The notes beneath the pieces are model-generated. The model saw only the letters and a list, made by a program, of their open reading frames with translations. It searched no databases and had not been told where the DNA came from. A DNA stretch of 64,000 bases from Myxococcota bacterium (lineage in GTDB: Bacteria > Myxococcota_A > SURF-8 > G963663525). The DNA is taken from positions 160,001 to 224,000 of the forward strand of contig CAXXVK010000043.1 in NCBI GenBank assembly GCA_963676915.2, read 5' to 3'. Positions 14,663-39,090 of this stretch are shown in pieces; position 1 is the stretch's first letter, and every line of letters begins with the position of its first letter. Made by a program: the position numbers and the translations under genes.

Positions 14663-14725
14663 TCCGAACGGGTACCTTTTCTTTGTTGGGGGGAGTTGTT
14701 CCTATCCTTTTCCCATTGTATCGTC

Positions 14726-15439
14726 ATGAAAAGAATCGCTTGGTTCATACTGCTGTTTTGTCTTGTCATCGGTTTTTCCTGCTCGAAAACGCAGGAAAAG
14801 TCGGAAAGCCCTGCAAAAAAAACGGAGAAAACGCCTGCGCTTCGACCGATTGACGAAACCACCGAGAACATCCTTTACAATTACATCGACGAGCAGGGAA
14901 ATTTCCATGCGGTCGAGAACTCCGACGATGTGCCCGATGCGTTTCGTAACGATGTGGTGGTGATCGATCTCAACCTGTCGCCGGAACAAAGAGGTTCGGC
15001 CGAATCGGTGGTGGTGGCCGATCTGGAGCGTTTGGACGAAAAAGGGCATTTCACCTTGAGGGTGGAGAATCGCGCCAAGTTCGATCAGGCGATCAAACTG
15101 AAACGAAAGTGGAAACTCAACGAAGCTCCGCAGGCTTTGGCGCAAGCCAGTCCCCAACAACTCCAAAACGTGCAATTGACGCCCAATACGGACCAGGTAA
15201 TCCTTTATTCCACGGCATGGTGCGGATACTGCAAAGCGGCGCGAAAATGGTTGACATCCAACGGGGTGCCGTTTGTGGAGAAGGATATCGAAAAGGACGA
15301 TCAAGCCTCCCTCGAACTTCAAGCGAAACTGGCGCGTGCCGGACAGCAGACCGGCGGGGTTCCCGTAATCGACTGGAAAGGTCAACTGGTCTCTGGTTTC
15401 GACCGAAATATCCTTGAACAACTGAAGAATTCGAAGTAA
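14726..15439 (+). CDS. Lipoprotein with C-terminal glutaredoxin/NrdH-like domain
   Basis: Lipobox GFSC; YSTAWCGYC...FVEKDIEKD...GGVPVID motif. Confidence 0.85.
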   Translation: MKRIAWFILLFCLVIGFSCSKTQEKSESPAKKTEKTPALRPIDETTENILYNYIDEQGNFHAVENSDDVPDAFRNDVVVIDLNLSPEQRGSAESVVVADLERLDEKGHFTLRVENRAKFDQAIKLKRKWKLNEAPQALAQASPQQLQNVQLTPNTDQVILYSTAWCGYCKAARKWLTSNGVPFVEKDIEKDDQASLELQAKLARAGQQTGGVPVIDWKGQLVSGFDRNILEQLKNSK

Positions 15440-15515
15440 ACCGCTCGAAGTCATGGGGAGAATCGGGCGTGTTTCGGAATGCATGGGTTTATCGCTGGTG
15501 GTTTACAGCGATTTC

Positions 15516-19128: not shown

Positions 19129-20484
19129 TCACTTTACGACGGATTGCAGATCCTTACCCATCGCCTTGAAAAACTCCAGCTTCGTCAACTGTTTTTCCAG
19201 GCGTTTCAGGACGAGATCGATTCGGTTGTTCTGATGAGTGTTGCGGGCGTCCACCACGTCCAGTGAGGAAACCGTACCGTTTTCGTAATAGGTTTCCGCA
19301 AGTTTCAAAGATTCTTCCGAAATGTCGGCTTTTTCCTCGGACATCCGCAGTCTGTCCACCGCTTCACGGTAATTTCTCTCGGTTTGACGCACTTCCAGCT
19401 CGGCGTTGTCCAGCGTTTCTTGCTGCGCCAGGCGAGCGCTTCGAGTCGCGGCGCGGGTTTGCTGCAAATCGCCGTAGGTTGTGTAGTCGAACAATGGAAT
19501 CGACAATACAAGCCCCGCATACCAACGCGAACGCTCGATGCCGCTGTTGCTCTCCGCCGGATCGGAGAGTTGGTAGTTCCATTGCCAGGATGCTCCCAGG
19601 GTTGGAACGAATTGCATGTAGTTTGCCAGATGCTGTTTTTCAGCTACCTCAAGATTGCGCTTGGCGATTTTCAGATCGAAACGATGTTCCTTGGCTCCGG
19701 CGAGAGTTTCTTCCTCCGAGGTTTCGGGGAACTTCTCCAGGGTTTCTCCTTCTTCGGGTAAAGGCAGCGTGTCCATGCACAACAGGGTTTTTAGGGTGTC
19801 TCGGGCATTTTCGAGACTGTAATGCGCCTGGATCAGACTATCTCTCGTTGCCACGAATTCGCTTTGGTAGCGGGTGACATCCAGCCGTGTTCCCACCCCG
19901 TGTCGATGGCGAAAATCGGCCATTTCCATGTGGTGCCGGATCGCCTCTAGCTGACTTTCGTACACCTTGATCGTCGAGCGTGCCGAAATCGCCTGATAAA
20001 AGGCGGAAGCCACGGTAAAAAGCAGTTCCTGACGGACTTGCTCGGCATTCAGGCGAGACAATTCAAGGCTTTTCTTCGAAGAGGAAACTCCCACCCATTG
20101 TTGAGCGCTGACCAATGGAAGATTCGCCGAAATTGCGGCATCAAGATCGTGGCGGGCACGGGTTTCTATGGATTGCCCGTTGACGACGCTCGACTCGGCG
20201 TGATCGTAGAGAATATAGTTCAGTGAGCCGTCCACGGTGGGCAGCAAGCCACCCCATGAGGTCTTCAGTCGTCCTCTCGCCGCTTCGATTTCCGCCCGGC
20301 TCTGCTGGATGGTCAGGTTCCGTTGTTTGGCCAACTCGAAAGCTTGCGGGAGCGTAAGCGACTCGCCTGGAGCGATGGCCGGAACGGCTACGGATGTCAG
20401 GGAGCGCGCTTCGACCGAAATCGGGAGTGTCAAACATGCGAAAAATGCAACAAAAACGAGCCGTTTCATATTGATAAGATTCAT
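19129..20484 (-). CDS. TolC-family outer membrane efflux protein
   Basis: Signal peptide, two OEP-like helical repeats (LSIPLFD, YENGTVSSLDVVDA); overlaps the RND gene by 4 nt. Confidence 0.9.
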   Translation of the reverse strand: MNLINMKRLVFVAFFACLTLPISVEARSLTSVAVPAIAPGESLTLPQAFELAKQRNLTIQQSRAEIEAARGRLKTSWGGLLPTVDGSLNYILYDHAESSVVNGQSIETRARHDLDAAISANLPLVSAQQWVGVSSSKKSLELSRLNAEQVRQELLFTVASAFYQAISARSTIKVYESQLEAIRHHMEMADFRHRHGVGTRLDVTRYQSEFVATRDSLIQAHYSLENARDTLKTLLCMDTLPLPEEGETLEKFPETSEEETLAGAKEHRFDLKIAKRNLEVAEKQHLANYMQFVPTLGASWQWNYQLSDPAESNSGIERSRWYAGLVLSIPLFDYTTYGDLQQTRAATRSARLAQQETLDNAELEVRQTERNYREAVDRLRMSEEKADISEESLKLAETYYENGTVSSLDVVDARNTHQNNRIDLVLKRLEKQLTKLEFFKAMGKDLQSVVK

Positions 20485-23400
20485 CCCGCTACCTCCGTAG
20501 CTTCTTTTGCGGGTTGGGTTTCCGTTTCGTTACCGGATTTGAAAAACGCCCGAAGATGCTCGGTCATCACGAAAAGCGCCGGTGTCAGCAACAACACGAA
20601 GGTTGTCGCAACGACGATTCCGAAGCCCAGGCTTACCGCCATCGGAACGATCATACGTGCCGAGAAATCCGTTTCGAAGATCATCGGCATCAGACCGAAG
20701 AAGGTGGTTGCCGTCGTGAGGAAAATCGGCCGGAATCTTCGGCAGGCTGCGTCGATCGCCGCCCGTTCGGGTTCCAATCCCTCGTTTCGCAGGTTGTTGG
20801 CCGTATCGACGTATACAATGGAGTCGTTGACCACAACCCCGGCCAGAGCCAGCATACCCATGATGCTGAACATGCTCAAATCCATGCCCAGCAACACGTG
20901 TCCCAGCACCGATCCCACCATACCGAAGGGAATGGCGGACATCACCACGAACAGGGGTTGCAGGTAGCTTTTCAACGGAATGGCGATTAGGGCGAAAATC
21001 GCGAGCAGCGCCAGTGCGAACCCGAGTTTCATGTATTCGGCGAAATCCTGCATATCTTCCTGTCGGCCTCGGAACTGCCATTTCAATCCCGGATACTGAG
21101 CTTCAAGTGACGGCAGATAGGACGAGAAAAGTTCTCCTACGATTTCGTTGGCGTTGGCCTGGTTTTCATCCACGGCCGCTTGAATCTGCAAGGTCCGTTT
21201 GGCGTCGGTGCGTCGGATGGAAGTATAGGCCCGGCCGAAATCGATTTTCGCCACATCCTGCAACGGCATTTCGCCACCGCTTGGAGTGCGGATCATCAGG
21301 TTTTCCACGCTTTGCAGATTTTCCCGTTCTTCGCGGGTCAGGCGTACCATGACTTTGACTTCGTTGCGTCCCCGTTGTTGGCGCAGGGCTTCGGAACCAT
21401 AGAATCTGGCGCGAACCTGACGAGCCAACTCGGCAGCCGTCAAACCGGCGTTCACGCCCTCGGGAGTCAGCTTGAAACTCCATTGAGTTTTGCCCAATTC
21501 GATACCGTTGTCAATGTCGTGCACACCGGAAAAGGACTCCAACTGCTCGCCGACTTTTTGGGCGCATAGCTGAAGAATCTCGTTGTCCGGGTGCGATAGT
21601 TCGAAGTCGATGGCTTTGCGTGTTCCGTGCATGGTGGCACTGAAAACGATGGTGTCCAGCATATCGGTGGGACCGAATTCTTCGCGCCAGGCGCGGGCGA
21701 ATTGTGCTGAACTGAACGTGCGTTCGTCCGGAGATACCAGCATGATTTCCACCGAGGTCAGATTGCTCGAGGAGGCACCGACGCTACCGCGTGGTCCTCT
21801 ACTTGCCCCTTGCCCGAGTCGAGCGAAGATTCCGAGGGTGATTTTATCGCCACCGAAAGCCGCAATCGCACGTTTTCCCGACTCGACCAGACGGCGCATG
21901 ACGCGCTCGGTTTCCGTAGAGGACACGCCGAAAGGCAATGTAGCCGAAACCTGGACGCGGTCGGTGTCGTCTTTGGGAAAGTCGATGTACTTGATGCGTC
22001 CGCCTGCAACGATACCCGCTACGACGATCAACAAGCTCAGACTTGCCGCCAGAGTAATCCAGCGGTTTCGTACCGTCGCCGTGACGACAGGTCGAAAGCG
22101 GGTTTCGATAAAGCGGGTCATCGCATCCGAAAACGCCTTCTGGAAGCGTAATACCGCACCGAAAAGGTTCTGAGAACGGCCGTTTTTCTTTACGTGAGCC
22201 AGGTGTGCCGGGAGGATGAAAAACGATTCGACGAGCGAAATGATGAGCACGAAAATCACGATGACCGGTACGGCGAACACGATCTTGCCGAACGTTCCGG
22301 GAACCATCAGCAGCGGGAAAAATGCGGCAACGGTCGTTCCGATGGAGAAAAACACCGGCATCGCCATTTCTTTCACGCCCAGAATCGCCGCCTCGATCGG
22401 CGGATGTCCTTCGTTTCGCTTGTGAAAAACGTTTTCACCGACGACGATAGCGTCATCCACCACCATACCGAGCGTAACGAGGAAGGCGAACATGCTGATC
22501 ATGTTCAGTGAAACACCCAAGGCCGGTAAAAACAGAAACGAGCCTAAAAATGAGACGGGAATTCCTAAACTGACCCAGAACGCCAAACGGGGTTCGAGAA
22601 AGAGTCCCAAAATGAGCAACACCAGTGCCAGTCCGATGGCGGCATTGCGTAACAGCAGATCTAGACGTTCCTCGAACATTTTGGAGCGGTCGTTCCAGGT
22701 TGTTACTTTGATCTTGTCGGGAAGTTTCTGTCGCAATGTTTCGGCATAGCCTTTGACCGCTTCGGCAACCTGGGTCGGCGATTGTTCACCCACGCTGGAA
22801 ACGTCCAGAACCAAAGCCCGTTCGCCATTGAAAAAGCCCGCAATATCGCTTTCTTCGAAATCGTCGTTGATTGTGGCGATGTCTCCTAGCGGCACCTGAG
22901 CGCCATCGTTCCCGAAAACGATTGGAATGTTGGCGAATTCATAGCCGTAATCCCGGCGTTCCTGCACGCGCAGGAGAATATCACCGGCGCCGCTTTTCAC
23001 GCCGCCGCCGGGAGTTTCCACCGCCATATTCTTGATTTGCTGGGCGATTCCGTCGAGTGTGACGTTGTATTTCCGTAAAGCATCCTGCGTCAGTTCGATT
23101 CCGATTTCTTCACTACGTACGCCTTTGATTTCGACTCGCGAAACTTCAGATAACCCCAACAGACCCTCGCGGATTCTCTCGCCGTAGGCATGCAGGGTTT
23201 GTTCGTCCACATCTCCGTATACGACAAGACTGATGGCTTCCGCCGTCATTTCACGCATGGAAACGATGGGGTTTTCGATTCCATCGGGAAACGAGCTGAT
23301 GCGATCCACCGCGCTTTGTACGTCATTTAAGGCTTTGTTGCGGTTCGTGCCCTCTTCGAGTTCGACCGTGATCGAACCGGAACCTTCCGAGGCGACCGAA

Positions 23401-23663
23401 TACACCTTTTTTACACCGTCGAGTGGTCGCACCGCTTCTTCAACCGACAGCAGCAGTCCGCGTTCGATTTCCTCGGGGCTGGAGCCGGGATAGGCGATGC
23501 TGATGCTCACCTGATCCATTTCGATTTTCGGAAAGACTTCCTTGTTGATTCGCTGGCTCATCAGCACACCGCCGACGAGCAACATCACCATCAGCAGGTT
23601 GGCTGCTACCGGGTTTCTGGCCATCCAGGAGAACGACCCCTTGTACAAATCCGAGCGTTTCAT
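20481..23663 (-). CDS. RND efflux transporter permease (AcrB/AcrD/AcrF family)
   Basis: 1060 aa; NPVAANLLM, YPGSSPEEIE, GMVVDDAIVVGEN, GVVVNDSIV, RFRPIFLTTATT. Confidence 0.95.
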   Translation of the reverse strand: MKRSDLYKGSFSWMARNPVAANLLMVMLLVGGVLMSQRINKEVFPKIEMDQVSISIAYPGSSPEEIERGLLLSVEEAVRPLDGVKKVYSVASEGSGSITVELEEGTNRNKALNDVQSAVDRISSFPDGIENPIVSMREMTAEAISLVVYGDVDEQTLHAYGERIREGLLGLSEVSRVEIKGVRSEEIGIELTQDALRKYNVTLDGIAQQIKNMAVETPGGGVKSGAGDILLRVQERRDYGYEFANIPIVFGNDGAQVPLGDIATINDDFEESDIAGFFNGERALVLDVSSVGEQSPTQVAEAVKGYAETLRQKLPDKIKVTTWNDRSKMFEERLDLLLRNAAIGLALVLLILGLFLEPRLAFWVSLGIPVSFLGSFLFLPALGVSLNMISMFAFLVTLGMVVDDAIVVGENVFHKRNEGHPPIEAAILGVKEMAMPVFFSIGTTVAAFFPLLMVPGTFGKIVFAVPVIVIFVLIISLVESFFILPAHLAHVKKNGRSQNLFGAVLRFQKAFSDAMTRFIETRFRPVVTATVRNRWITLAASLSLLIVVAGIVAGGRIKYIDFPKDDTDRVQVSATLPFGVSSTETERVMRRLVESGKRAIAAFGGDKITLGIFARLGQGASRGPRGSVGASSSNLTSVEIMLVSPDERTFSSAQFARAWREEFGPTDMLDTIVFSATMHGTRKAIDFELSHPDNEILQLCAQKVGEQLESFSGVHDIDNGIELGKTQWSFKLTPEGVNAGLTAAELARQVRARFYGSEALRQQRGRNEVKVMVRLTREERENLQSVENLMIRTPSGGEMPLQDVAKIDFGRAYTSIRRTDAKRTLQIQAAVDENQANANEIVGELFSSYLPSLEAQYPGLKWQFRGRQEDMQDFAEYMKLGFALALLAIFALIAIPLKSYLQPLFVVMSAIPFGMVGSVLGHVLLGMDLSMFSIMGMLALAGVVVNDSIVYVDTANNLRNEGLEPERAAIDAACRRFRPIFLTTATTFFGLMPMIFETDFSARMIVPMAVSLGFGIVVATTFVLLLTPALFVMTEHLRAFFKSGNETETQPAKEATEVAG

Positions 23664-24940
23664 GGATGGACCTCGGCCTTGTCGTCGGTTTTGTCGCTAG
23701 CTGCTTTTCGTCTTGGCTTGTAACCTTTTTGCTGGTCGGATTCCGTTTCCATATTTTCGGCCAGACGCAATTCCATTCCGGCAACGGGAATCTGTATCCG
23801 GCTGGTGATAACCGCCGCTCCATCGCTCAGGTTTCCTCGCACGATCGTTCGGTCCGCTTCGCGCCACAACAATTGCACGTTGGCGATATCAAGGCGGCTC
23901 TGGTCGTCGAGCAGCCAGACCTTTTTTTCTTCGTGCAAAGCCCCTTCGGGAAGGGCGATGGCATCGGGTAGCTGTTTTCCCAATAATTCGACTCGCACGT
24001 AAGCCCCCAACATCAAAGGTAATTGACTTTTACCTTTCGTGTCGTCTTTACCGGATGATTTCAGATAATGTGGATCTTCGACGCGTACGAGAAGCTGGGC
24101 GGTTTTTCCGCTGGTGTCCAGTTCAGCCAGAAGTTTGATGACCTGTCCGTCGAAAACTTGTTCTTCTTCGCCAAAATGATACAGAATCCGCGCTTTCGAG
24201 CCGTTCTTGCCGCTGTCGTCGGGTAAGTCGAGCCAGCGAAGTTTTTCGAGCGGAACGGACACCTGCACCCAGAAGGCGTCGCTATCGACCAGGGTGGCGA
24301 TCAATGTCTGAGAAGACACCACTTGACCGGTATCCACGTTCTCCGCGATTACAAAAGCATTGAAAGGGGCACGGATACGGGTTCGAGACAAATCCAATTG
24401 GGCTTTTTCGAGGCTGCTTTGTGCCGATGACAGCGCCGCCTTGGCGCTTTGCAACTGAATCTCACGGGTTGCAAGGCGCTTGGCTTGCTCGGTCGGCTCC
24501 ACATTGTGCTCGATCAATTCCCATTCGCGCTTCGCCGCCGAGTGATTCGCTTCTTCCTGCGCCAAGGCAAGTTCGGCCTGCGCCACGGTTCCTTCCTGGG
24601 AACGGACCTGCAAGCGGTAGTCGCTTGTATCGATACGTAGCAAGGTGTCGTCTTTTTTGAGGTGTCCGCCGGGGATCAGACGGTCCGACATCGAGGTTAC
24701 GCGCCCACTGACCTGCGGATACACATCCACGCGACGAGCGGCTTTGACGGTGCCCATCGTTTGAACCACTGCTTGGATGGTTTCCTGACGTACGGAAATC
24801 GTTTCGACCGTCATGGCCTTTTGAGCGGCGTGAACGCGTGAGGGCGCTTTTCGAGTTCCGACAAAGTAGGAAAAAATCACCGCTCCCCCGCCTAGCAAAA
24901 CGAGAATCGCGAGAATGGTTTTATAGGGTTTCGGTTTCAT
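23660..24940 (-). CDS. RND membrane fusion protein (periplasmic adaptor)
   Basis: AAGGAGG RBS before ATG 24940; N-terminal TM; GTVKAARRVDVYPQVSG, LSRTRIRAPFNA. Confidence 0.92.
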   Translation of the reverse strand: MKPKPYKTILAILVLLGGGAVIFSYFVGTRKAPSRVHAAQKAMTVETISVRQETIQAVVQTMGTVKAARRVDVYPQVSGRVTSMSDRLIPGGHLKKDDTLLRIDTSDYRLQVRSQEGTVAQAELALAQEEANHSAAKREWELIEHNVEPTEQAKRLATREIQLQSAKAALSSAQSSLEKAQLDLSRTRIRAPFNAFVIAENVDTGQVVSSQTLIATLVDSDAFWVQVSVPLEKLRWLDLPDDSGKNGSKARILYHFGEEEQVFDGQVIKLLAELDTSGKTAQLLVRVEDPHYLKSSGKDDTKGKSQLPLMLGAYVRVELLGKQLPDAIALPEGALHEEKKVWLLDDQSRLDIANVQLLWREADRTIVRGNLSDGAAVITSRIQIPVAGMELRLAENMETESDQQKGYKPRRKAASDKTDDKAEVHP

Positions 24941-25063
24941 TTCTAGTGCCTCCTTACGAACGTAACCGTTTACGTCACCTACGGTATCAGACGTTTCTTT
25001 TTGGTTCAGCTTAGTTTCGGTAGCAGGTTTGTATCCAATATGGTCGATGTTTGCATACAAAGG

Positions 25064-25077
25064 TACAATTCGATACA
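25064..25077. promoter_or_regulatory. RstA-box-like direct repeat
   Basis: TACA-N6-TACA (TACAATTCGATACA), with an extra TACA at 25056, between the divergent RND and regulator genes. Confidence 0.45.
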
Positions 25078-25189
25078 AAAACGAAACGGAATTCGACGTT
25101 CGGTTGTGATTTAATAAAATTGATATGTGCGGATACATGGAGCCGGTGCCGTATTTTGGACGCGGGAGTTTTGTAGAAGGAAAAAACTC

Positions 25190-25915
25190 ATGATGCAAAA
25201 CGAACAGAAACGCATCCTGTTGGTGGAAGACGACGAGAAACTAGCCAACCTCGTCAAAGATTTTCTAGAATCCAACGGATTTTCGGTACTTATCGAAATG
25301 CGTGGAGACCAGGCCGCCGAACGGATCGAACGGGAAGAGCCGGATATTCTGATTCTGGACTGGATGCTTCCGGGAATGGACGGTCTCGCCATTTGTCGGC
25401 AGGTTCGTAACCGGTTCAACAAGCCCATTCTGATGCTCACCGCACGAGGAGACGAGGTGGATGAAATCGTCGGTCTGGAAGTAGGTGTTGACGACTATCT
25501 TGCCAAGCCGGTACGACCGCGATTGCTTTTGGCGCGAATTCATGCGCTTTTGCGTCGTTTTGATCCTTCCGATACAACTGGTACGACCTCTATGATAGAT
25601 CATGATGACAAAACCATCTGGCTCGGCAACTTAAGTGTCGATCCGAAAAACCGAAGAGTTTATATCAACGATAGAGAAATCCTGTTGACCACGAGTGAAT
25701 TCGATCTGTTGCTGTATTTGGCTCGTCATTCCGGCGAGTTGCTGGAGCGGGAGCGAATTTACCAGGACGTTCGGGGCATCGAATGGGATGGGTTGGACCG
25801 GTCCATCGATCTGCGTATCGCACGTTTGAGGAAAAAACTTGGAGATGACGCCCGCTCCCCCAAACGGATCAAATCCGTTCGTGGTACGGGATATCTGATG
25901 GTGGCCAATCCATGA
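25190..25915 (+). CDS. OmpR/PhoB-family response regulator (RstA-like)
   Basis: ILLVEDD, LDWMLPGMDG, LMLTARGDEVD, DDYLAKP; winged helix GIEWDGLDRSIDLRIARLRKKL. Confidence 0.95.
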   Translation: MMQNEQKRILLVEDDEKLANLVKDFLESNGFSVLIEMRGDQAAERIEREEPDILILDWMLPGMDGLAICRQVRNRFNKPILMLTARGDEVDEIVGLEVGVDDYLAKPVRPRLLLARIHALLRRFDPSDTTGTTSMIDHDDKTIWLGNLSVDPKNRRVYINDREILLTTSEFDLLLYLARHSGELLERERIYQDVRGIEWDGLDRSIDLRIARLRKKLGDDARSPKRIKSVRGTGYLMVANP

Positions 25916-27258: not shown

Positions 27259-27417
27259 GCCGATCTTTCTTGCTCATCGCAATAGATTGATCTAATCTCC
27301 GTTTCGGAGAGAGTTTCTCACAAATCGCATGTTCGTTTCGAGTTGTTGGATTCGTTTATCCAAAAATCTGCTCGAATTCGGGCATTGTTGTGTACCCCGA
27401 AACACGAGGAGTCCGCG

Positions 27418-29067
27418 ATGCGTAATCCACGAGGCAGGGACGATTCCATGCGCCGATCCACGTCCCAATCAAGGCGCAATTTCATCAAAAACGCCGTGTC
27501 GGCATCGGCTGTCTTGGGGGCAGCCGCCGTAGTTTCCGGCTGCAACAGTGAAGACTGTGGCGAAACCTGCAACACCGACGATTCCGGGTCCACGGGCAAA
27601 AAACTCAGTTGGGACCGCGAGACGGATGTCATCGTTGTAGGTTCGGGAACGGGACTCGCCTCTGCTCTCGCCTCTTCTGTCTCCGGTTCGGAAACGTTGG
27701 TGCTCGAAAAATGGGAGAGCATCGGTGGTTCGACGAAAATGTCCGGTGGTGTGTTGTGGATTCCCAACAATCCCGTGATGAAACGTAACGGAATCGACGA
27801 TTCCCGTGAAAACGCGATGACCTACGTCACGATGGTGGCCCACGGGCAAGCGGAGGACGAAATCATCGAGGCTTTCGTGGACAGAGGGCCGGAGATGGTG
27901 GAGTTTATCGAGCAACACGCCGATTTCAACTGGCGCAGTTCGGTATTGTTGACCGACTATCACCCCGAATGGCCCGGTTCGGTTTTCCAGGGTCGTAATT
28001 TGGAGCCGGATCTGTCGGGTACCTCGATCACGCTGGGTCCGAAACTCGTGCAGGGGCTGGCGGATGCCGTCGAAAAGGCCGGGGGAGAGATTCTGTTGGA
28101 AACCCCGGTGAAACGACTCGTGACACAACTCAAAGACGATGGAACCCAGGAAGTGCTTGGTGTTGTCGCCGAGCAGGAAGGCAGTGAAATCGCGATCAAA
28201 GCCCGGCAGGGCGTCGTACTGGCTGCGGGTGGTTATGACTGGAATTTCGAGATGAAAAAGCATTTTTTGCGGGGTCCGTCGAAATATACCATCGGTCATC
28301 CGGGCAATACTGGTGACGGTATCCAAATGGCGATGCTGGCCGGAGCGGGTTTGAGCAATATGAACGAATGTTGGGGCGCTGTAGTCTATAAAGATGAGAC
28401 CGAGGCAGCCCACGAAAACGGCGATCCCGGCGTGTTGACCGCCATGACTCAGCGCCGTATGTGCGGCTGTATTACCGTCAATCGCTACGGCAAACGTTTC
28501 GGAAACGAAGCGGGGGATTACGACTCTTCCTGGCGCTCGTTTTTTTCGTGGGAAAACTGGGGAGATACCTTCGACCACAACCTTCCCGCTTACCAGATTT
28601 CAGACAAAAGCGTGGAACCCAGTGCGGAACGGGGAATCGTAGAAGCCGACACGATTCGGGAACTCGCCGAAAAACTGGGGATCGACCCGGATGGTCTGGA
28701 AGCTACGGTAGAGGAATTCAACCAGTGTTGCGAGAACGAGCAAGACCCGCAATTCCATCGTGGTGAAAGCGCGTACGATACCCATTATGGGAAAACGCTG
28801 GGCACCATCGAAGATCCGCCGTTTTACGGGATCGAAGTCGCCCCGGCGGATCTTGGAACCTGCGGTGGGGCGCGTGTCAATGCCAACGCACAGGTGCTTA
28901 ATCCCATGGGTGAACCGATTGCGCGGTTGTATGCGGCGGGTAACAACGCCGGGGTTGGTGGTCCGGGTGCTGGCTACGGCGGTGGGGGCGGGACCATCGG
29001 TCCGGGGCTGACGTTCGCACACATCGCCGGTTTGCATGTGGCGGGGTTGGAGAAACAAGAAGAATAG
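27418..29067 (+). CDS. Tat-exported FAD-dependent oxidoreductase (3-ketosteroid-delta1-dehydrogenase/fumarate reductase flavoprotein family)
   Basis: SRRNFIK Tat motif plus VSGC lipobox; DVIVVGSG, GGSTKMSGGVLWIPNN, DYHPEWPG, NTGDGI, LYAAGN, YGGGGGTIGPGL. Confidence 0.85.
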   Translation: MRNPRGRDDSMRRSTSQSRRNFIKNAVSASAVLGAAAVVSGCNSEDCGETCNTDDSGSTGKKLSWDRETDVIVVGSGTGLASALASSVSGSETLVLEKWESIGGSTKMSGGVLWIPNNPVMKRNGIDDSRENAMTYVTMVAHGQAEDEIIEAFVDRGPEMVEFIEQHADFNWRSSVLLTDYHPEWPGSVFQGRNLEPDLSGTSITLGPKLVQGLADAVEKAGGEILLETPVKRLVTQLKDDGTQEVLGVVAEQEGSEIAIKARQGVVLAAGGYDWNFEMKKHFLRGPSKYTIGHPGNTGDGIQMAMLAGAGLSNMNECWGAVVYKDETEAAHENGDPGVLTAMTQRRMCGCITVNRYGKRFGNEAGDYDSSWRSFFSWENWGDTFDHNLPAYQISDKSVEPSAERGIVEADTIRELAEKLGIDPDGLEATVEEFNQCCENEQDPQFHRGESAYDTHYGKTLGTIEDPPFYGIEVAPADLGTCGGARVNANAQVLNPMGEPIARLYAAGNNAGVGGPGAGYGGGGGTIGPGLTFAHIAGLHVAGLEKQEE

Positions 29068-29136: not shown

Positions 29137-30345
29137 TCACGAATTGGGGTGATCGAGCACGATTTTGATCGCTCCGGTCTGCTTTTTGTTCGTAAAGGCG
29201 CGAATGGCGTCTTTGTAGCGATTCATGGGAAACCTGTGGGTGATGATATCCATGGGGTTTACGGCATCGTTGAGCAACAAATCGGCGGCGAGGTCGAACG
29301 AGGTGCGACCATCGGCCTCGGTAGCGTGACAGTTGATGCCGACGAGTTCGATTTCCTGTGCCCATACCGGGCTGTAGTCGATTTTTCCCGGTTTGAAATT
29401 GATGCCGATCAACACCACGCGACCGCCACCCTTGGTCCAGCGTAACGCATGGTGCAGGCTGTGGTCATTGCCCACGGTGTCGTATACCACGTCGAAACCA
29501 CCCAACAGGATTTCATTACGGAAGTAGCCTTTGGCATAGCTTGCCCCGGTCGTTTTGGCGATTCGGGCATAGATCGACTTCGAGTGGTCCGCTATGGCTT
29601 CTCCGCCCAGTTTGCGCACGACTTTGCGTTGGAACGGATGGCGAGCCAGAACGTGTACCTCGACCTCCGGTGCCAGTACCCGAAGTGCGGCGAGCGTCAA
29701 CAGACCCAAGGTTCCCGCACCGACCACCAAAGCTTTCTGACCTTCGTGAAGCGGTGCTTTGAGCACGCCATGCACGGCGCTGGCCAGGGGTTCGATCAGC
29801 AAGGCTTTTTCCAGCGTCAGTTCGTCGGGAATGCGAAATGCCTGGGTGTGGTGCATCACCATGATGGGTGAAAACCCCCCGCCTGGATTTTCGATGGGTA
29901 GCGGCCGTTTGCCCTGGTTTTCGCAAAGCATGTAATTGCCGCGAGCACATTGCGGGCAGGGAGGATCGAACTCCATCTGGTAGCAGCTTGGCCAGTCGAT
30001 GCGCATGGTTACGCGGTCGCCGGGGGAGATATCCTCGACGCTGCCGCCCACCTCCAGAACTTCACCCACCAACTCGTGCCCCAGGAATTTCCTGGAAATG
30101 CCCGGAACCGCAGCCGGAAAGCATTTGGGGTCCATGTCCATGAACATGAAATGCAGGTCGGTGCCGCACAGTCCGCAGGCGAGGTTTCGGACTTTCAACC
30201 AGCGGGAGTTGGGAATCTCCGGTTCGTCGATTTCGTCGTATTTCAGCGGGGATATCGGTCCCAAAGCCGCTTCTTTGTCGATCAACGAGGCGGCACGCAT
30301 GGCGATAACTTTCGACAGCCGGTTTTCGAAAAACAGGGCTTTCAT
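29137..30345 (-). CDS. Zn-dependent medium-chain dehydrogenase
   Basis: CGLCGTDLH, LGHELVGEV, structural Zn Cys cluster (C...CPQC...C), GAGTLG, ITHRFP. Confidence 0.92.
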   Translation of the reverse strand: MKALFFENRLSKVIAMRAASLIDKEAALGPISPLKYDEIDEPEIPNSRWLKVRNLACGLCGTDLHFMFMDMDPKCFPAAVPGISRKFLGHELVGEVLEVGGSVEDISPGDRVTMRIDWPSCYQMEFDPPCPQCARGNYMLCENQGKRPLPIENPGGGFSPIMVMHHTQAFRIPDELTLEKALLIEPLASAVHGVLKAPLHEGQKALVVGAGTLGLLTLAALRVLAPEVEVHVLARHPFQRKVVRKLGGEAIADHSKSIYARIAKTTGASYAKGYFRNEILLGGFDVVYDTVGNDHSLHHALRWTKGGGRVVLIGINFKPGKIDYSPVWAQEIELVGINCHATEADGRTSFDLAADLLLNDAVNPMDIITHRFPMNRYKDAIRAFTNKKQTGAIKIVLDHPNS

Positions 30346-31598
30346 GCCGTTTCCTTTCCCGATTCCAAGTCACTTAATACCTTTTCCAGGAGTTTCACTG
30401 CTTGCGCTATTTCACTCTCGTTCAGTTGCAACGGAGGACGTAAAACGACAGTATCTTTCGCTACTTCTCCAGTTGCCAGCAGTATTCCGTTTTCCGCCGC
30501 CCGTCGGACGAACTCGCTTGCGAGGCTTTCCTCTTTGAAACGCAGGGAAAACAGCCCGCCCGTTCCTTCGATGGAATGAATCGTTTCGACATGTTTTTTT
30601 GCAAGACGATCCAATTCTTTGCGAAGATGGTCACCCATTTCTTTCGCATGGTCCCAGGGATGTTCCCGCTCATAGATCTCAAGCGCTTTTAACGCCACAC
30701 GACAACCGATGTCCGAACCGCCGAAGGTGGAGAGGTGGATCATCGGGTGCTCGTTCATGAAACGGTTGACCTTCTGAGTGATGACCGTTGCCGCAATGGG
30801 AAACATTCCACCTCCCAACGCTTCGCCTAGTATCAGGATATCCGGTTCCAATCCGCTTTCCAGAAATGCGAATTTCTCCCCCGAACGTCCGAAACCGGTT
30901 TGTGTCTCATCCACAACAAATAGTGCTCCTGTGGATTTGCAACGCGCCTCGATTTTTGTCAGCCACTTCGGTTCGAGCCTGTGGCAGTGGTTTTCCACCT
31001 GGATCGGTTCGACGATGACGGCCGCTGTGTCGGTATCGATGGCATCGAGTAATGCTTGCAACGATTTCATCGGCTGGATATCCGTTTCGGGAATCAACGG
31101 GGAGTAGTGGTCCTTGTCGTCTCGTGTCGAGAGCGAAAGAGCGAAGCCGGTTTGCCCGTGCCAGCCACCTTCGAGGGCTAGCAATTTGCGTCGTCCTGTG
31201 ACGCCCCTGGCTACTTTGCAGGCAAACTCCAACGTTTCGCCGCGTACCACGCTGAACACCGAGCACTCCAGGCCACCGGGGAGAAAACGAGCCAAAGCTT
31301 CGGCCAAGGCGGCTTTTTCGATGGAAATCATCGGAAAATTTCCCTGGTCGGTTTCATGAACCGCCTGTTTCAGAGCCTCGGCCAATTCGGGATTTCGGCG
31401 TCCCAGGTTGTAGATTCCCGCTCCGCTGAACCAGTCGAGCACCTCGCGGCCTGTTTCGTCCCGAAACGTGTTTTCACTCCGTTCCGATTCGAAAAAGACT
31501 CGACCGGTTTGTTTCATTTTCTCAAGAATTCCGGGTCCGAATAAAGCTTCACAGGAAGATTCGAACGATTCTGTGGAAGATTTCGTGTGTTTTGCCAT
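30342..31598 (-). CDS. Class-III aminotransferase paralog lacking the PLP-binding Lys
   Basis: WHGQT, EPIQVE, DETQTGFGRSG and HLSTFGG are present, but PDILILGEALGGG has Glu at the Lys position (codon GAA, 30822-30824). Confidence 0.85.
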   Translation of the reverse strand: MAKHTKSSTESFESSCEALFGPGILEKMKQTGRVFFESERSENTFRDETGREVLDWFSGAGIYNLGRRNPELAEALKQAVHETDQGNFPMISIEKAALAEALARFLPGGLECSVFSVVRGETLEFACKVARGVTGRRKLLALEGGWHGQTGFALSLSTRDDKDHYSPLIPETDIQPMKSLQALLDAIDTDTAAVIVEPIQVENHCHRLEPKWLTKIEARCKSTGALFVVDETQTGFGRSGEKFAFLESGLEPDILILGEALGGGMFPIAATVITQKVNRFMNEHPMIHLSTFGGSDIGCRVALKALEIYEREHPWDHAKEMGDHLRKELDRLAKKHVETIHSIEGTGGLFSLRFKEESLASEFVRRAAENGILLATGEVAKDTVVLRPPLQLNESEIAQAVKLLEKVLSDLESGKETA

Positions 31599-31600
31599 TT

Positions 31601-33028
31601 TCAATTCCCTTTGAACGAATCGGTTAGTTTTTTTACACCGTCTTCCATGCTGCGCATGGCTCCGAAAAGTCGGGTCTGTACGGCTTCGCTGTTAAGCAAT
31701 CGGAGCAGGGCAGGGATTTTGGCCGCCGGAAGTGCAAGAGGTAACAGGGTTTTCATGTCTTTCAGCGCTCCGCTTATGGCCTCGATCAATTCCTCAAGTT
31801 CTTCTTCGCTGATCGTGATCGGAGCCATGAAACGCATGACCTGCGGTGCATTCCCGGAATAGGCGGCGAACACACCATGCTTGGCCAAAGCATCGGCCAT
31901 CATCGGCCCAAGAAATTCGTGGATGTACTCAATGCCCACCATCAGGCCGATCCCACGGATATCTTTGATGATTTTCGGATTTTGGCGCTTCATTTCCAAG
32001 AGTGCTTCGCGAAATCTGCGGCCTCGTTGCTCGGCGTTTTCCCATAGTTTGTTTTCGACGATGTAGTCCAGCACCGCCGACGATACCCGGCAACCCAGGT
32101 CGCTGCCCCCGGTGGAACTGGGATGGAAATCGGGATTCGCATCGACGAACGTTCCCAACGGACCATCGCCGCGATACAGCACCGAAGCGTTGGGGTATAC
32201 GCCACCACCCAGCGATTTCGCGACGGTCAGAATGTCGGGAACCACGCCCGACCACTGGCAGGCGAATAGTTTTCCGGTGCGTCCGAAACCTGTCTGGATT
32301 TCATCGAAAATCAGCAAAATCCCCCGTTGGTCGCATAGTTTTCGCAATCCCTGAAGATAGTCGTTGCTACCAATATAAATTCCGGCTTCACCTTGAACCG
32401 GTTCGACGATAATGGAGGCGGTGTCGTCGTCCACGGCGTCTTCCATGGCTTTCAGGTCGTTGAACGGTACGAATTCGAAACCGGGCATCAGTGGTTCACA
32501 ATAGTTGCGGTAGTGTTCTTTGCCATTGGCCGAAAGAGCGAATCCGGTATGACCGTGGTAGGCTTTGACGGTAGAGAGAATTTTGGTTTTTCCCGTAGCG
32601 CCACGAACCATTTTGATGGCGGCGTCCACTGCATCTCCTCCGCCGGCAGCAAACAGAATTCGATTGAGATCCCCCGGCGCCAGATCGACAAGCTTGCGTG
32701 CAAACGTGATTTTTTCTTCGGAAAGCAGGTTCCATTCTCCCATATCCAAAGAATCCGCTGCTTGGTCGAGCGCTTCGACGATTTGTGTGTTGCCACGCCC
32801 CACGTTGAAACATCCGGCGGAGGAAAAGCAGTCGAACATCGCTTTTCCCGGCAGGGGATCGACGAAACGGACACCCTGACGACGGGTTTCGATGACGTCG
32901 AGATGTCCGGCACGCAAATATCGGACTTGTCCGCGATTGATGTATTTCGTAAAGCGTTCGACCAGATTTTTCTTTTCGTCCGCTGTCATGGTCGAAAAAG
33001 CACTCGCCCTGTTCGTTTCGGCACTCAT
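31601..33028 (-). CDS. Class-III PLP aminotransferase (putrescine/ornithine aminotransferase-like)
   Basis: YHGHT, EPVQGEAG, FDEIQTGFGRTG, PDILTVAKSLGGG; GAGGT RBS before ATG 33028. Confidence 0.92.
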   Translation of the reverse strand: MSAETNRASAFSTMTADEKKNLVERFTKYINRGQVRYLRAGHLDVIETRRQGVRFVDPLPGKAMFDCFSSAGCFNVGRGNTQIVEALDQAADSLDMGEWNLLSEEKITFARKLVDLAPGDLNRILFAAGGGDAVDAAIKMVRGATGKTKILSTVKAYHGHTGFALSANGKEHYRNYCEPLMPGFEFVPFNDLKAMEDAVDDDTASIIVEPVQGEAGIYIGSNDYLQGLRKLCDQRGILLIFDEIQTGFGRTGKLFACQWSGVVPDILTVAKSLGGGVYPNASVLYRGDGPLGTFVDANPDFHPSSTGGSDLGCRVSSAVLDYIVENKLWENAEQRGRRFREALLEMKRQNPKIIKDIRGIGLMVGIEYIHEFLGPMMADALAKHGVFAAYSGNAPQVMRFMAPITISEEELEELIEAISGALKDMKTLLPLALPAAKIPALLRLLNSEAVQTRLFGAMRSMEDGVKKLTDSFKGN

Positions 33029-33240
33029 TGAGTTTACCTCATATGTGAGTTGTGATATGATGCCAATGGTAAAAAAATGCCCATGCTTCAAAGTATTTCC
33101 TTCACCTTGTCTTCTTCTGTCCGATTAAGACTGTCGAAAGAGGGAAAGTGAAGCTGTAAAATCGACTCTCCAATTAGAACGGCAATTGTAGCGAGACGAT
33201 CCGTTCGATTCAACATTATTCTCTCTAGAAAGGGGTGGTT

Positions 33241-33840
33241 ATGAAAGCGACCGATTTCAATCTTAAAAACGATCTCCGTTTCGATCCGGGGCAGGGCTTG
33301 ACTTCGTTCCGAGATTCGAGACTGGTGATTTTCGATGCCAATGCCATCGGTTTGCTGCGTCAGAATCTGTTGGAAGAACTCGGTTTGGAGGCGGCACGCC
33401 GCTTCTTCCTACGGTTCGGATTTCAGCACGGGTACGCTGATTTCATGCAAATGAAAGTCAACTACGAGTTCGATTCCGAAATGGATCTTCTGGCCTCCGG
33501 GCCGGTGATGCACAGTTGGGAAGGTATCGTACAAGCTACCCCGAAAGAGCTGGATTACAGCCGTGAGACGGGAAAATTTTACTTTACCGGCACCTGGACC
33601 AACTCGTACGAGGCCGAACAGCACCTTAGCTACAACGAAACGGGAACGGAACCGGTTTGCTGGAGCTTGATGGGCTATGCCAGCGGTTGGGGAACCGCTT
33701 TCTTCGGGAAACCCTTGTTGGCTATCGAACCCGTGTGCATGGGCAAAGGCGACGATCATTGTGAATGGAAAATGTTACCGGTCGATGAGTGGGGAGATGA
33801 AGCGAAACTATATCTCGAAGCACTCAAAGATCTGTTTTAG
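33241..33840 (+). CDS. Stand-alone XylR-N/V4R ligand-binding domain protein
   Basis: LRQNLLEELG..AARRFFLRFGF, GPVMHSWEG, NSYEAEQH, PVCWSLMGYASG, EPVCMGKGDDHCEW; no AAA+ domain. Confidence 0.88.
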   Translation: MKATDFNLKNDLRFDPGQGLTSFRDSRLVIFDANAIGLLRQNLLEELGLEAARRFFLRFGFQHGYADFMQMKVNYEFDSEMDLLASGPVMHSWEGIVQATPKELDYSRETGKFYFTGTWTNSYEAEQHLSYNETGTEPVCWSLMGYASGWGTAFFGKPLLAIEPVCMGKGDDHCEWKMLPVDEWGDEAKLYLEALKDLF

Positions 33841-35110: not shown

Positions 35111-35463
35111 GACGTTCTCCGTTTGCGAAACGAATACGAATTTTTTCCTTACAGAGGTGAGAGCTGTTTCGGAGTGTTACGGGAACCCGTCTTTTCCCGG
35201 AACTCATTTCTGTCTACAATGATACCACATTTGAGAGTTCCGATTCAATCCTCCTGTATTTTTCCTTTTTATCTCCACTTTTTTCCACAAAAAAGTGATT
35301 TTCACGGAAAATTAGCTTTTTATGTTTTCCAAATTCTCCGACATGACAGAAAACCTACCGAACTTCTTCTCCATTCCGTATTGCAAAAGAAGGAAACCGG
35401 CCTTATCTTGGAGAAGGAAAACCTCCCCGTAAGGGACAGACATTCAGCGTGAGGGTTCGATTG

Positions 35464-37399
35464 ATGGCATTTATTTCGACAGTCTTCTGGGGTATCGTTC
35501 TTCTGGGCGTACTGGTTCTCGTTCACGAAATGGGGCATTTTCTTGCGGCACGTCAGGTGGGAATTCGGGTGCTGACGTTTTCCATCGGGTTCGGTAAGAA
35601 GCTCTTTTCTTTCCGACGTGGACATACGGAGTACCGTATCGCCGCCGTTCCACTGGGTGGTTACGTTCGCCTGATGGGGCATGAATTCGACGAGATGTTG
35701 CCGCCGATCATTCTTGGAACCGCTCCGGGAAGTCTGGCCGACAAAGCAGGATTGAAACCCGGCGACGTGTTGTTCAGTATCGATGACAAAGAGCAAAGCG
35801 ACTGGAAAGAAACCGGCGATCTTCTAAACGATAGCCTCGGTGAAGACATTCACCTTGCGGTTGTTCGAGATGGAAAACTGCTGGAATTTACGGTGGAATC
35901 CGGGGATGCTTCCGAGGATGCGCCATCAGGCGAGTTTCCTGGAAAACTCGATTGTGTGGAAGACAAGGAAATGACGATTTCTCCTTTGGGACTCACCATC
36001 GGAGTGGATGCCGAAACCGCACAGGAAAGTTTTTCGAGAAAACCGCTATGGGACGTTTTTGGGTGGTTCTTGCCGGACCGCTGGCCTCATTGCTGTTTCC
36101 GATTCTGATTTATTTCTTTTTCAACCTGGGAACCGGCGAAGTGCTCGATTCCCGAATCGGTAGCGTATTTCCCGAACGCCCGCCGAACGCGCCGGATTGA
36201 TGGCCGGAGACCGGATTGTCGAGATTTCCGGGCAGCCCGTCAGTCGCTGGAGAGACCTCGTTGCTGCCATCGATATGCAAAAAGGACAGGAAACCCGCTT
36301 GAAAGTACTGCGGGACGGAGAAAAGTTGTCTCTTACCGTGACGCCCGAAACTCGAGAATCACGGGATCGATTGGGAAAAAGCCAGGAGCGTGGGCAGATC
36401 GGCATCGGTTATGCTCCGTTGCAGGCCATCGTAGCTGTGGGAAATGAAGCCTCTCCCGCCGCTCGTGCCGGAATTCGCTCGGGAGATACGGTGCTGGCGA
36501 TCAATGGCGAGGAAATCAGTCGGTATTACGAATTGCAACGCCACCTGGACGAAATGGCTATCAGTGGCCGGACGGTGTCGCTGAAAGTTGCGGGGGAAGA
36601 CGGGAAACCTCGGGAAGTCCGTCTTACGCCCGAGCTTGGGAAAAACAACGAATACCGAACCGGACTTTATCCGGCGGATGTGTTGATCGGGAAAATCGCG
36701 CCGGACAGCGCCGCTGAAAAAGTTGGGCTGAAAGCCGGAGACCTGTTGATGCGTTTCAACGGGCAACCGATTTCCTCGTGGTTGGTTTTCGAGGTGCTGT
36801 TGGGACGCCTGAAACCGCAGGATACACCGTTCGAACTTGAAGTGGAGCGACAGGGAGAAAGCCTGAAAGTGACGGTTGCCATGGCGAAGCTTTCGACGAA
36901 AGATCGTATGGGCAACGAGCACGAATACTGGCAGTTGGGTGTTTCGCCACAATACAATTACCTGAAATATTCCGAACCTTTCCTGCGGGAAGTGGACAAC
37001 CGCCTGGTGTACGCTGCCGTACAATCGGTCAAGGATCTGGCTGACATGATGTGGCTGCAACTGCGGATTATCCACGAGTTGGTCACGGGTGGAATCGGGC
37101 TGAATACCGTCGGTGGACCGATCGCCATCGTGGATCTCGCCGGACAGGCGGCCAAAGAGGGCGCGGGTCAGTTTTTGCAGATCATGGCGCTGATTTCCGT
37201 CAACCTCGGCATTATCAACCTGTTTCCGATTCCGGTGCTCGACGGCGGGCACCTGATGTTCTTCACGTTGGAAGCTTTGCTGCGCAAGCCGCTCAATCGC
37301 AAACTTCGCGAACGGGCGACCATGGTGGGTTTCGTGTTCCTGATGGGCTTGATCGGTTTGGTGATTTTGCAGGATCTTTCCCGCTATCTGTTTTCTTGA
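35464..37399 (+). CDS. rseP: RIP metalloprotease RseP (two apparent 1-nt deletions at about 36051 and 36175)
   Basis: VHEMGHF, FSIGFGK, PLGGYVRL, VVLAGP, several PDZ domains, GGPIAI, NLFPIPVLDGGH. Confidence 0.88.
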
Positions 37400-38498: not shown

Positions 38499-39090
38499 GT
38501 AGCGGCGAGGCGTAAGCCCGCCGTAATTTGATCGAGATAGACCTTATAGGAAATAATTTTATGTGCCATGTCAAATTCACGCTATAAAACTCGAAAAACA
38601 ATCCGCCTAAATAAAGAAGCCTATATGGGAGGAAACACTTTTCACGTAACTGTACGATGTTATCAAAAAATGGATTTACTTAGGAATGATGTAGCGAAAA
38701 TGACATTAGAAGTATTGAATAATATTTGTGAAAATGGCCAATTTAAAGTCTTTGCAGCTATTGCAATGCCGAATCATATTCATTTTCTTTGTTCGACAAA
38801 TGAAGGGGATGTTCTTACTCGTCATATTAATCGTTTTAAAGCAGTTACGACAACAATATTCCATCGCCAAGGGTACCACGGTCCTTTATGGCAGAGACGG
38901 TATTATGACCATGGTTTGCGTTCGATCGAAAGCCTTCAGCAGATTGTTTTGTATATTCTAGAAAATCCAGTTCGAAAAGGCTTCGTTGATGATTGGAAAC
39001 AGTGGCCATATTGTGTGGTTTCAGAGGGAGTTGGCATTTAATTGCAATAACTTTGGAGTTTTTTACGGCGGGCTTACGCCTCGCCGCTAC
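38499..39090. mobile_element. REPtron: RAYT gene flanked by inverted GTAG-REP sequences
   Basis: GTAGCGGCGAGGCGTAAGCCCGCCGTAA (38499-38526) and its exact reverse complement (39063-39090); AT-rich interior. Confidence 0.88.
38568..39041 (+). CDS. REP-associated tyrosine transposase (RAYT, Y1/HUH IS200-like)
   Basis: FHVTVRC, AMPNHIHFL (HUH), LWQRRYYDHGLRS, YILENPVRKG. Confidence 0.92.
   Translation: MSNSRYKTRKTIRLNKEAYMGGNTFHVTVRCYQKMDLLRNDVAKMTLEVLNNICENGQFKVFAAIAMPNHIHFLCSTNEGDVLTRHINRFKAVTTTIFHRQGYHGPLWQRRYYDHGLRSIESLQQIVLYILENPVRKGFVDDWKQWPYCVVSEGVGI

Follow-up and report, generated by a model that had tools for sequence, protein, structure and literature searches.

A tandem pair of class-III aminotransferase paralogs in a Myxococcota bacterium predicted to form a heteromeric enzyme with a single lysine-bearing active site

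A stretch of 64,000 nucleotides from a Myxococcota bacterium (contig CAXXVK010000043.1 of GenBank assembly GCA_963676915.2, positions 160,001 to 224,000 of the forward strand; hereafter the window) was found to encode two adjacent class-III aminotransferase paralogs, here termed A and B, followed by a zinc-dependent dehydrogenase, D. A carries the Schiff-base lysine of the family, and B has a glutamate at this position. Based on comparative sequence analysis of the pair in other genomes, A and B probably associate as a heteromer with one Lys-bearing site, which would be assembled from the cis parts of A and the trans-acting loops of B. The three genes are as follows.

31601-33028, minus strand: gene A, class-III aminotransferase of 475 aa, Lys-bearing and presumed to be the catalytic subunit
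30342-31598, minus strand: gene B, class-III aminotransferase paralog of 418 aa without the Lys, presumed to be a non-catalytic partner
29137-30345, minus strand: gene D, medium-chain Zn-dependent dehydrogenase of the polyol/threonine-dehydrogenase type, 402 aa

The genes are co-directional, with a gap of 2 nt between the stop codon of A and the ATG of B and an ATGA overlap shared by the stop of B and the start of D. These junctions, together with the gene coordinates and the motifs of A and B, were all found to be as described in an initial annotation of the window. Both paralogs matched the Pfam family Aminotran_3 (PF00202, cut-off 30.5 bits), A with 296.6 bits over profile positions 10 to 403 of 403 and B with 234.1 bits over positions 14 to 403, and were 33% identical to one another. 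No NCBIfam cut-off was reached by A or B among the best 25 of 69 matches, and both proteins scored below the cut-offs of the putrescine aminotransferase models NF008570 (A, 311.7 bits; B, 223.7 bits; cut-off 612) and TIGR03372 (A, 255.2 bits; B, 191.8 bits; cut-off 658.65). A protein atlas searched with B returned generic aminotransferase clusters only.

Among solved structures, the putrescine aminotransferase YgjG/PatA of E. coli (PDB 4uox) was the best match of both A (247.5 bits) and B (192.3 bits). This enzyme, the aminotransferase domain of PigE (4ppm) and the Thermus AcOAT/LysJ (1vef) have the same fold and belong to the same Pfam family as A and B. In the sections of the YgjG structure paper that deal with its active site, the latter is placed at the dimer interface, with pyridoxal 5'-phosphate (PLP) bound to Lys300, Asp271 in contact with the pyridine nitrogen, and the PLP phosphate contacted in cis by Gly150 and Thr151 and in trans by Thr332 from the opposite subunit; Phe327, which is also a residue of the other subunit, stands at the cleft entrance (PMC4244111). 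The corresponding codons and segments of A and B, and two further segments of interest, are located as follows.

32216-32218, minus strand: AAA codon of A Lys271, in TVAKSLGGG, the Schiff-base lysine equivalent to Lys300 of E. coli YgjG
32105-32125, minus strand: trans loop HPSSTGG of A, with Ser305 at the site of the phosphate-binding Thr that the partner subunit supplies in relatives
31604-31747, minus strand: conserved C-terminal extension of A of about 48 aa (LLPLALPAAKIP...LLN.E.VQ...F...R..E), residues about 428-475, past the aminotransferase fold
30822-30824, minus strand: GAA codon of B Glu259, in ILGEALGGG, at the position of the Schiff-base lysine
30717-30737, minus strand: trans loop HLSTFGG of B, with Thr291 equivalent to the partner-subunit Thr332 of YgjG and predicted to contact the PLP phosphate in the site of A
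31323-31352, minus strand: loop TDQGNFPMIS of B, residues 83-92, with invariant D84, G86, N87, F88 and S92, a candidate 'roof' loop by its spacing
31233-31250, minus strand: segment VVRGET of B, with Arg119-Gly120 in place of the cis phosphate-binding Gly-Thr

By alignment, A Lys271 and B Glu259 both fell on YgjG Lys300, B Thr291 and A Ser305 on the trans phosphate ligand Thr332, B Met286 and A Asp300 on the trans residue Phe327, and B Arg119-Gly120 and A Gly130-Gly131 on the cis phosphate ligands Gly150-Thr151. The counterparts of Asp271 are Asp242 in A and Asp230 in B, and those of Gln274, the Gln to O3' in YgjG, are Gln245 in A and Gln233 in B. The roles assigned to these residues in the initial annotation were thus correct when judged against 4uox and the YgjG paper. 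All catalytic residues are kept in A. YgjG itself is a homodimer with two identical sites, whereas the two paralogs of the window appear to split the cis and trans roles between them, one having Glu for Lys. For the omega-transaminase of Chromobacterium, the part of the report concerned with the cofactor lists Gly120, Ser121 and Thr321 as phosphate ligands, Thr321 being from the other subunit, and a figure legend marks the pocket residue Phe88 with an asterisk as coming from the other subunit (PMC6698932). This Phe88 precedes the phosphate Gly by 32 residues, as does Asn87 of B relative to Arg119. Because of this equal spacing, and by spacing rather than by alignment, loop 83-92 of B probably corresponds to the trans-acting roof loop of the Chromobacterium enzyme.

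To place the window's B in its family, B-type proteins were collected as 465 clusters at E ≤ 1e-60 among 8000 candidates scored. B-type genes were collected as 389 matching stretches in a one-genome-per-species collection, of which the best 80, chosen by B alone, were analyzed as loci, with the A, B and D genes located by tblastn. In the best 120 B-type proteins, the B of the window included, Glu259, Arg119, Gly120, Glu121, Asp230, Thr291 and Phe292 were each present in 120 of 120. Likewise, when B genes of other genomes were compared, Glu259, Thr291, Arg119, Gly120, Glu121, Asp84, Gly86, Asn87 and Phe88 were each found in 80 of 80. The Lys-to-Glu change, suggested earlier as a feature to be sought in orthologs, is therefore conserved, and the invariance of Glu259 indicates that it is ancient and fixed in the B family. 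With the Schiff-base Lys replaced by Glu259, B is predicted to be a structural member of the class-III family that cannot, on its own, be a conventional aminotransferase.

The same counts bear on whether the Glu codon could result from faulty assembly or from a recent mutation that inactivated B, an explanation to which we give essentially no credence. In its favor, the only contig identical to the window has a depth of about 5, and a neighboring RseP-like gene is split over frames. By contrast, the presence of Glu in 120/120 proteins and 80/80 genes across many phyla already refutes it, the open reading frame (ORF) of B is intact, and a contig obtained in another study (run X2), which differs from the stretch at 214 positions, covers A, B and D and is colinear over them. 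GAA was confirmed at 30822-30824 in B, and this codon is not affected by any of the differences listed for the run X2 contig, a listing outside of which 168 of the 214 fall.

We then compared A across the 71 A genes that neighbor B. Lys271, Asp242, Gln245, Glu214, Tyr157-His158 and Arg399 were each retained in 71 of 71. At the trans position 305, the residues found were Tyr (21), His (19), Ile (9), Ser (6), Leu (4), Phe (3), Pro (3), Val (2), Thr (2), Trp (1) and Cys (1), such that Ser or Thr was present in only 8 of the 71, compared to 130 of 134 other Lys-bearing class-III representatives (Thr in 110, Ser in 20). Judged by this alignment, position 305 is unconstrained in the A family. The degenerate trans loop attributed to A thus holds at the level of the family; it is not evident from the copy in the window alone, which has Ser305. 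With Thr291 of B invariant, the loop decay in A is reciprocal and conserved, as had been anticipated.

An unbiased scan, in which 66 A/B pairs were aligned and compared for per-column entropy, gave a similar picture. B was less conserved than A on average (mean entropy of 1.56 vs 1.15 bits), and only two segments were detected in which B was much more conserved than A. The largest excess (+1.51 bits) was at the trans loop, A300-306 / B286-292, and the other (+1.28 bits) was at A99-105 / B88-94, which with B81-87 forms the invariant TDQGNFPMIS loop. By analogy to the solved relatives, both are segments that reach into the active site of the partner. Segments in which A was more conserved than B (A28-43, A68-74, A349-373 and A387-400, the last including the Arg399 region) were N-terminal and small-domain segments, which carry the cis substrate elements of A. 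Because of this pattern, what is conserved appears to be everything around the A-lysine site, whichever subunit provides it, and what is free to vary appears to be the contribution of A to the pocket of B. Between the window and a relative of the same genus, identity was 89% for D, 86% for A and 74% for B, and the lower value for B fits a partly relaxed partner subunit.

Gene order and co-occurrence were equally strict. A immediately preceded B, in the same orientation, at 76 of 76 loci with room for it, and at the other 4 of the 80 loci B was at a contig edge. The loci were from Desulfobacterota (cultured Desulfoluna strains among them), Nitrospirales, Hydrogenedentota, Spirochaetota/Leptospirales, Myxococcales, Bacteriovoracaceae, Bradymonadales, Thermoleophilia and Thermovirgaceae, a spread of at least eight bacterial lineages. 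Of 401 genomes from the phylum of the window, 14 carried an A-type gene and the same 14 carried a B-type gene; no genome had one alone. The search for orthologous pairs proposed in the initial annotation thus revealed two genes that are never apart. A and B are paralogs that are always encoded together and of which only one has the Lys, an architecture like that of LCB1/LCB2 of serine palmitoyltransferase.

Natural fusions of the two genes were also detected. Four protein clusters of 851-906 aa had an N-terminal A-type part (61-62% identical to A), a C-terminal B-type part (51-54% identical to B) and two Aminotran_3 stretches each. At the DNA level, the fusion was a single uninterrupted ORF in loci L100/L101 and L103, which are 86% identical and lie on contigs of 139-377 kb; in-frame fusions have thus been retained over 14% sequence divergence. 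In locus L102, a closer relative of the fusion lineage (89% identical over its best segment), A and B are separate genes and the N-terminus of B is present, whereas the B half of the fused form (L100/L103) is without about its first 50 residues. Based on this difference, the A-B fusion seems to have arisen by a deletion that spanned the boundary between the genes. Two other apparent fusions, seen in genomes G078 and G358 of the phylum as open frames that enclose B and are 848 and 907 aa long, were rejected as alternative-frame read-through of A in high-GC DNA, with B starting at its own Met; the fusions retained are those from metagenomes. The C-terminal tail of A, in which Pro439 and Arg459 were invariant in 33 sequences, runs into the linker to B in the natural fusions.

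A model of the A+B complex was generated from 33-row alignments in three runs, with controls. The interface score ipSAE was 0.95 in the three runs vs 0.00 for the best control, a mark attained by 58 of 80 solved complexes and by 2 of 110 mismatched pairs. The runs had at least 90% of their contacts in common, and the partner had a predicted local distance difference test score (pLDDT) of at least 91. The confident interface included B 83-93, B 281-293, B 259, A 270-271 and A 294-307; the tail of A was absent from it. In addition, the conserved N-terminal helix of A (22-38) rests on B 96-113 in the model. The prediction of an A:B complex, which had been proposed as a check, therefore passed its controls.

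Several points weigh against a one-site heteromer. Solved class-III aminotransferases are homodimers or tetramers, and the pass of the model may reflect the likeness of A and B to them; the result does not discriminate A:B from A:A or B:B. The Ser305 of the window's own A is the residue found in 20 of 134 Lys-bearing relatives and could still bind phosphate. Fusion of A and B in one chain would not, in principle, prevent A from pairing with A' and B with B'. Pairwise distances among A and among B were found to correlate (r = 0.87, a value reached by 0 of 500 permutations), but such a correlation is expected for any co-inherited neighbors, whether they touch or not.

Alternatively, A and B may form separate homodimers, in which A tolerates a non-Thr loop and B is a co-expressed, Lys-less binding or regulatory protein. 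Each solved relative listed is a homo-oligomer, two enzymes of one pathway would also be expected to show strict synteny and co-occurrence, and Thr291 in a B:B dimer could serve the pocket of B itself. We consider this arrangement very unlikely. It leaves unexplained both the loss of the trans hydroxyl in A (Ser or Thr in 8/71 vs 130/134) and the finding that the only two segments conserved in B over A are trans-acting loops, and it is at odds with the in-frame fusions kept over 14% divergence.

The history of the pair was examined in a tree of 161 tips, the nearest representatives (FastTree, LG+gamma, midpoint root), from which representatives of less than 370 aa and one row with less than 300 aligned positions were left out. 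B was monophyletic (support 1.0), with a long stem branch, and A grouped with P0138 and P0134. A direct sister relationship of A and B was not supported: their common node spans 63 of the 161 tips, and for this reason B is no simple recent tandem duplicate of A, a further point to be set against the heteromer. The sister of the B clade was P0130 (support 0.91), which is Lys-bearing, already has Arg-Gly-Glu, and is the only one of the 134 Lys-bearing representatives with Arg in the phosphate-binding segment. P0130 is thus a possible intermediate towards the B type, and Arg119 would predate the loss of lysine in B; the interpretation of VVRGET as a destroyed phosphate site is therefore weakened. 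The initial annotation was right that this segment is altered, as Arg-Gly replaces Gly-Thr, but the occurrence of Arg-Gly-Glu in a Lys-bearing protein makes it weaker evidence than supposed. Six other class-III clusters are also without Lys (P0140, P0142, P0148, P0230, P0232 and P0268, with Arg, Arg, His, Gly, Asn and Gly, respectively), and three of these belong to the broad clade of the tree that also holds A and B.

To these points must be added the pocket of B itself, which is strongly conserved and not decayed, more so than would seem necessary for a partner with a structural role only. Asp230, Gln233, Glu202 and Arg387 of this pocket were invariant (80/80), and Trp146 and aromatic 147 were also kept. 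In view of this conservation, the term pseudoenzyme may understate B. The conserved residues could form a network within B that takes the place of PLP and shapes the trans loops of B, or they could form a real ligand site.

If the latter, A and B may form a heteromer with two working pockets, in which the B site binds PLP, pyridoxamine 5'-phosphate or an anionic or phosphorylated ligand non-covalently as a second catalytic or allosteric site, and Arg119 replaces the lost trans Thr, such that B is no dead subunit. Consistent with this, B keeps nearly all pocket residues but the Lys (Asp230 to the pyridine nitrogen, Gln233, Glu202, Arg387, Trp146, aromatic 147 and Arg119-Gly120-Glu121), the Arg-Gly-Glu of its nearest Lys-bearing relative, P0130, indicates that Arg119 is compatible with a PLP site, and the exclusive use of Glu where the Lys would be suggests selection for a role and not decay. 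By contrast, the elements that A would contribute to the pocket of B (positions 305 and 300 and loop 98-102) are the most variable parts of A, and a class-III enzyme working with Glu for Lys was not found in the literature searched, which had subscription journals outside its coverage. On balance, two working pockets appear unlikely. A related proposal, doubtful but conceivable, is that the pocket of B (Arg119, Glu121, Glu202, Asp230, Gln233, Glu259 and Arg387) binds a cofactor or effector non-covalently and so controls or complements the lone Lys site of what would be the first natural heteromeric aminotransferase. If so, the pair would be a hard-wired 'half-of-the-sites' class-III enzyme and would represent a new form of PLP-enzyme regulation or division of labor.

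Taken together, the one-site heteromer remains the preferred interpretation. A and B would together make up a class-III (fold-type I) aminotransferase that is obligately heteromeric and has as its smallest unit a pseudo-symmetric A:B dimer with a single PLP-dependent, Lys-bearing site. In cis, A would provide Lys271, Asp242, Gln245, Glu214, Arg399 and a Gly130-Gly131 phosphate cup without a side-chain hydroxyl. In trans, Thr291 of B (HLSTFGG) would contact the PLP phosphate in the site of A, and the B loop D84-x-G86-N87-F88 would roof over the pocket for the substrate. The symmetry-related site in B would be unable to form an internal aldimine because Glu259 replaces the Lys, and the loops of A that face it would be free to vary. 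This assignment, in which A supplies Lys and PLP and B the trans loop, is that of the initial annotation, and the invariant Lys-to-Glu change, the reciprocal loop decay, the two genes never being apart, the fusions and the complex model all argue for it. The enzyme would most likely deaminate a primary amine, with pyruvate as the amino acceptor in clades that carry an alanine dehydrogenase (Ald); in the clade of the window, a carbonyl product or substrate would be handled by the co-translated Zn-dehydrogenase D.

D matched PF08240 (ADH_N, 61.7 bits) and PF00107 (ADH_zinc_N, 51.3 bits), and residues C57, H90, E91, E185, C121, C130, C133, C141, G209, G211 and G214 were kept in 26 of 26 D proteins. 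We take C57, H90, E91 and E185 to be ligands of the catalytic zinc, C121, C130, C133 and C141 to be the structural-zinc cysteines, and G209, G211 and G214 to be the glycines of the GxGxxG motif. After the second strand of the nucleotide fold, Arg, not Asp, was found in 24 of the 26, which presumably indicates a preference for NADP(H). The nearest solved relatives were sorbitol, butanediol and threonine dehydrogenases, with an uncharacterized 'putative zinc-binding dehydrogenase' (4ej6) as best match at 104.8 bits. By cut-off, D is not an L-threonine 3-dehydrogenase (NF003808, 126.4 bits vs 380; TIGR00692, 111.3 bits vs 458.35).

Only A-B(-D) was shared between the window and its relatives of the same order, in which D follows B in 5 of the 7 genomes that carry the A-B pair. 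Flanking genes were considered as parts of the system (the XylR_N/V4R gene, the KstD-like flavoprotein, a histidine kinase and the RND pump) and rejected, as they are not conserved beside the pair in relatives. Across the 80 loci, the recurrent neighbors of the pair were as follows.

D at no more than 600 nt downstream of B: 27 of 80 loci, with 2 more at 0.8-1.05 kb
Alanine dehydrogenase (TIGR00518, 492.7 bits, cut-off 391.85) just upstream of A-B: 17 of 80 loci
Amidohydro_3 protein between Ald and A: 8 of 80 loci
TetR regulator adjoining A-B: 24 of 80 loci

The sets of loci with D and with Ald did not overlap, and the A-B pair is therefore regarded as the core, with the accessory genes as alternatives. 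Coupling to a Zn-dehydrogenase, as described for the window in the initial annotation, thus applies to some clades, that of the window included, and not to others, which carry alanine dehydrogenase, amidohydrolase or TetR instead. The Amidohydro_3 neighbor received no NCBIfam name. In amine catabolism, an alanine dehydrogenase gene beside that of a class-III aminotransferase usually signals that pyruvate accepts the amino group. In modules of the taurine:pyruvate aminotransferase (Tpa) type, a class-III aminotransferase reportedly stands beside an Ald that recycles pyruvate, and the Ald-carrying A-B loci resemble these. Amine:pyruvate transaminases such as Tpa differ in being single-gene homo-oligomers, and the clade of the window has the Zn-dehydrogenase instead of Ald. 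For A-B-D, the pathway is most likely an amine-to-carbonyl-to-alcohol route or its reverse.

In one genome of the same order (G007, locus L014), a glycyl-radical enzyme, a radical S-adenosylmethionine activase and a PNPOx-like protein (12388-16815) were found directly upstream of A-B-D on the same strand. The glycyl-radical enzyme scored 419.4 bits to the PFL2/glycerol-dehydratase subfamily and was below every equivalog cut-off. This arrangement, in G007 only, is a possible hint that the alcohol from D may feed a radical dehydratase; a glycyl-radical enzyme was not a recurrent neighbor in the loci of relatives.

Other genes around A-B-D in the window were as follows. Divergent from A, 33235-33840 (plus strand) encodes a 201-aa protein with XylR_N (93.6 bits) and V4R (37.2 bits) only; it is without the AAA+ and DNA-binding parts of XylR/DmpR/MobR-type activators, and the gene is either truncated or codes for a sensor that acts alone. 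Immediately after D, on the opposite strand, 27343-29067 (plus strand) encodes a 574-aa FAD_binding_2 flavoprotein, the best match of which was 3-ketosteroid-delta-1-dehydrogenase (362.5 bits vs a cut-off of 789). Its N-terminus resembles a twin-arginine signal (RRNFIK...), and the gene is not conserved with A-B. At 35449-37399 (plus strand), an RseP-like site-2 protease (Peptidase_M50 and PDZ) is split into an N-terminal part (35449-36108) and the rest (36197-37399), with a third-frame ORF (35952-36200) between the halves, indicating either a pair of frameshifts or mistakes in the assembly, the depth of which is about 5x. The remaining flanks are ordinary, with an IS200-like Y1 transposase (48.8 bits) at 38568-39038 (plus strand) and a resistance-nodulation-division (RND) efflux operon at 19132-25198 (minus strand) that encodes OEP, an AcrB-type pump and an HlyD-type adaptor.

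Aminotransferases are textbook homo-oligomers, and no heteromeric class-III aminotransferase was found described in the literature searched, with the coverage given above. The two-subunit (alpha/beta) P-protein of glycine decarboxylase of some bacteria is a fold-type I PLP enzyme in which one paralogous half is without the Lys, the site lies between the halves, and fused and split forms occur. It differs from A-B in being a decarboxylase of the glycine cleavage system and in belonging to another subfamily. A passage of a 2022 review states that little is known on heteromultimers of different aminotransferase monomers (PMC9309667). Eukaryotic serine palmitoyltransferase, a fold-type I alpha-oxoamine synthase, is a heterodimer of the related PLP-fold subunits LCB1 and LCB2, like the proposed A:B; in the account given in part of one report, LCB2 carries the PLP site, LCB1 is thought to be cofactor-free and is needed for stability and activity, and the bacterial relatives are homodimers (PMC5519370). 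By contrast to the proposed A:B enzyme, serine palmitoyltransferase catalyzes condensation and not transamination, is eukaryotic and is membrane-bound, and homology is claimed for the fold type only. In trypanosomatids, a dead paralog of deoxyhypusine synthase, termed a 'prozyme', is described in the abstract of a paper on this enzyme as hetero-oligomerizing with an impaired active paralog and as needed for activity (PMC3663545); prozymes differ from the present case in having an unrelated fold and cofactor, in being eukaryotic and in not being operon-encoded. The principle of a pseudoenzyme partner is thus already known from serine palmitoyltransferase and prozymes, and its putative class-III aminotransferase case appears to be new in the literature searched.

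The A-B genes are a widespread, generically annotated pair with the full comparative signature of an obligate one-site heteromer. If this reading is true, the pseudoenzyme-partner principle would be extended to transaminases, and the possible failure of single-gene expression of such 'aminotransferases' in enzyme discovery would be explained. For annotation, Glu at the Lys position combined with Arg-Gly-Glu would, if the heteromer is true, mark a partner subunit. Heteromeric aminotransferases may have arisen repeatedly if the other Lys-less clusters also have Lys-bearing neighbors. In anaerobic and sediment lineages, the pair represents a candidate amine catabolic module, present as A-B-D or as Ald-amidohydrolase-A-B-TetR.

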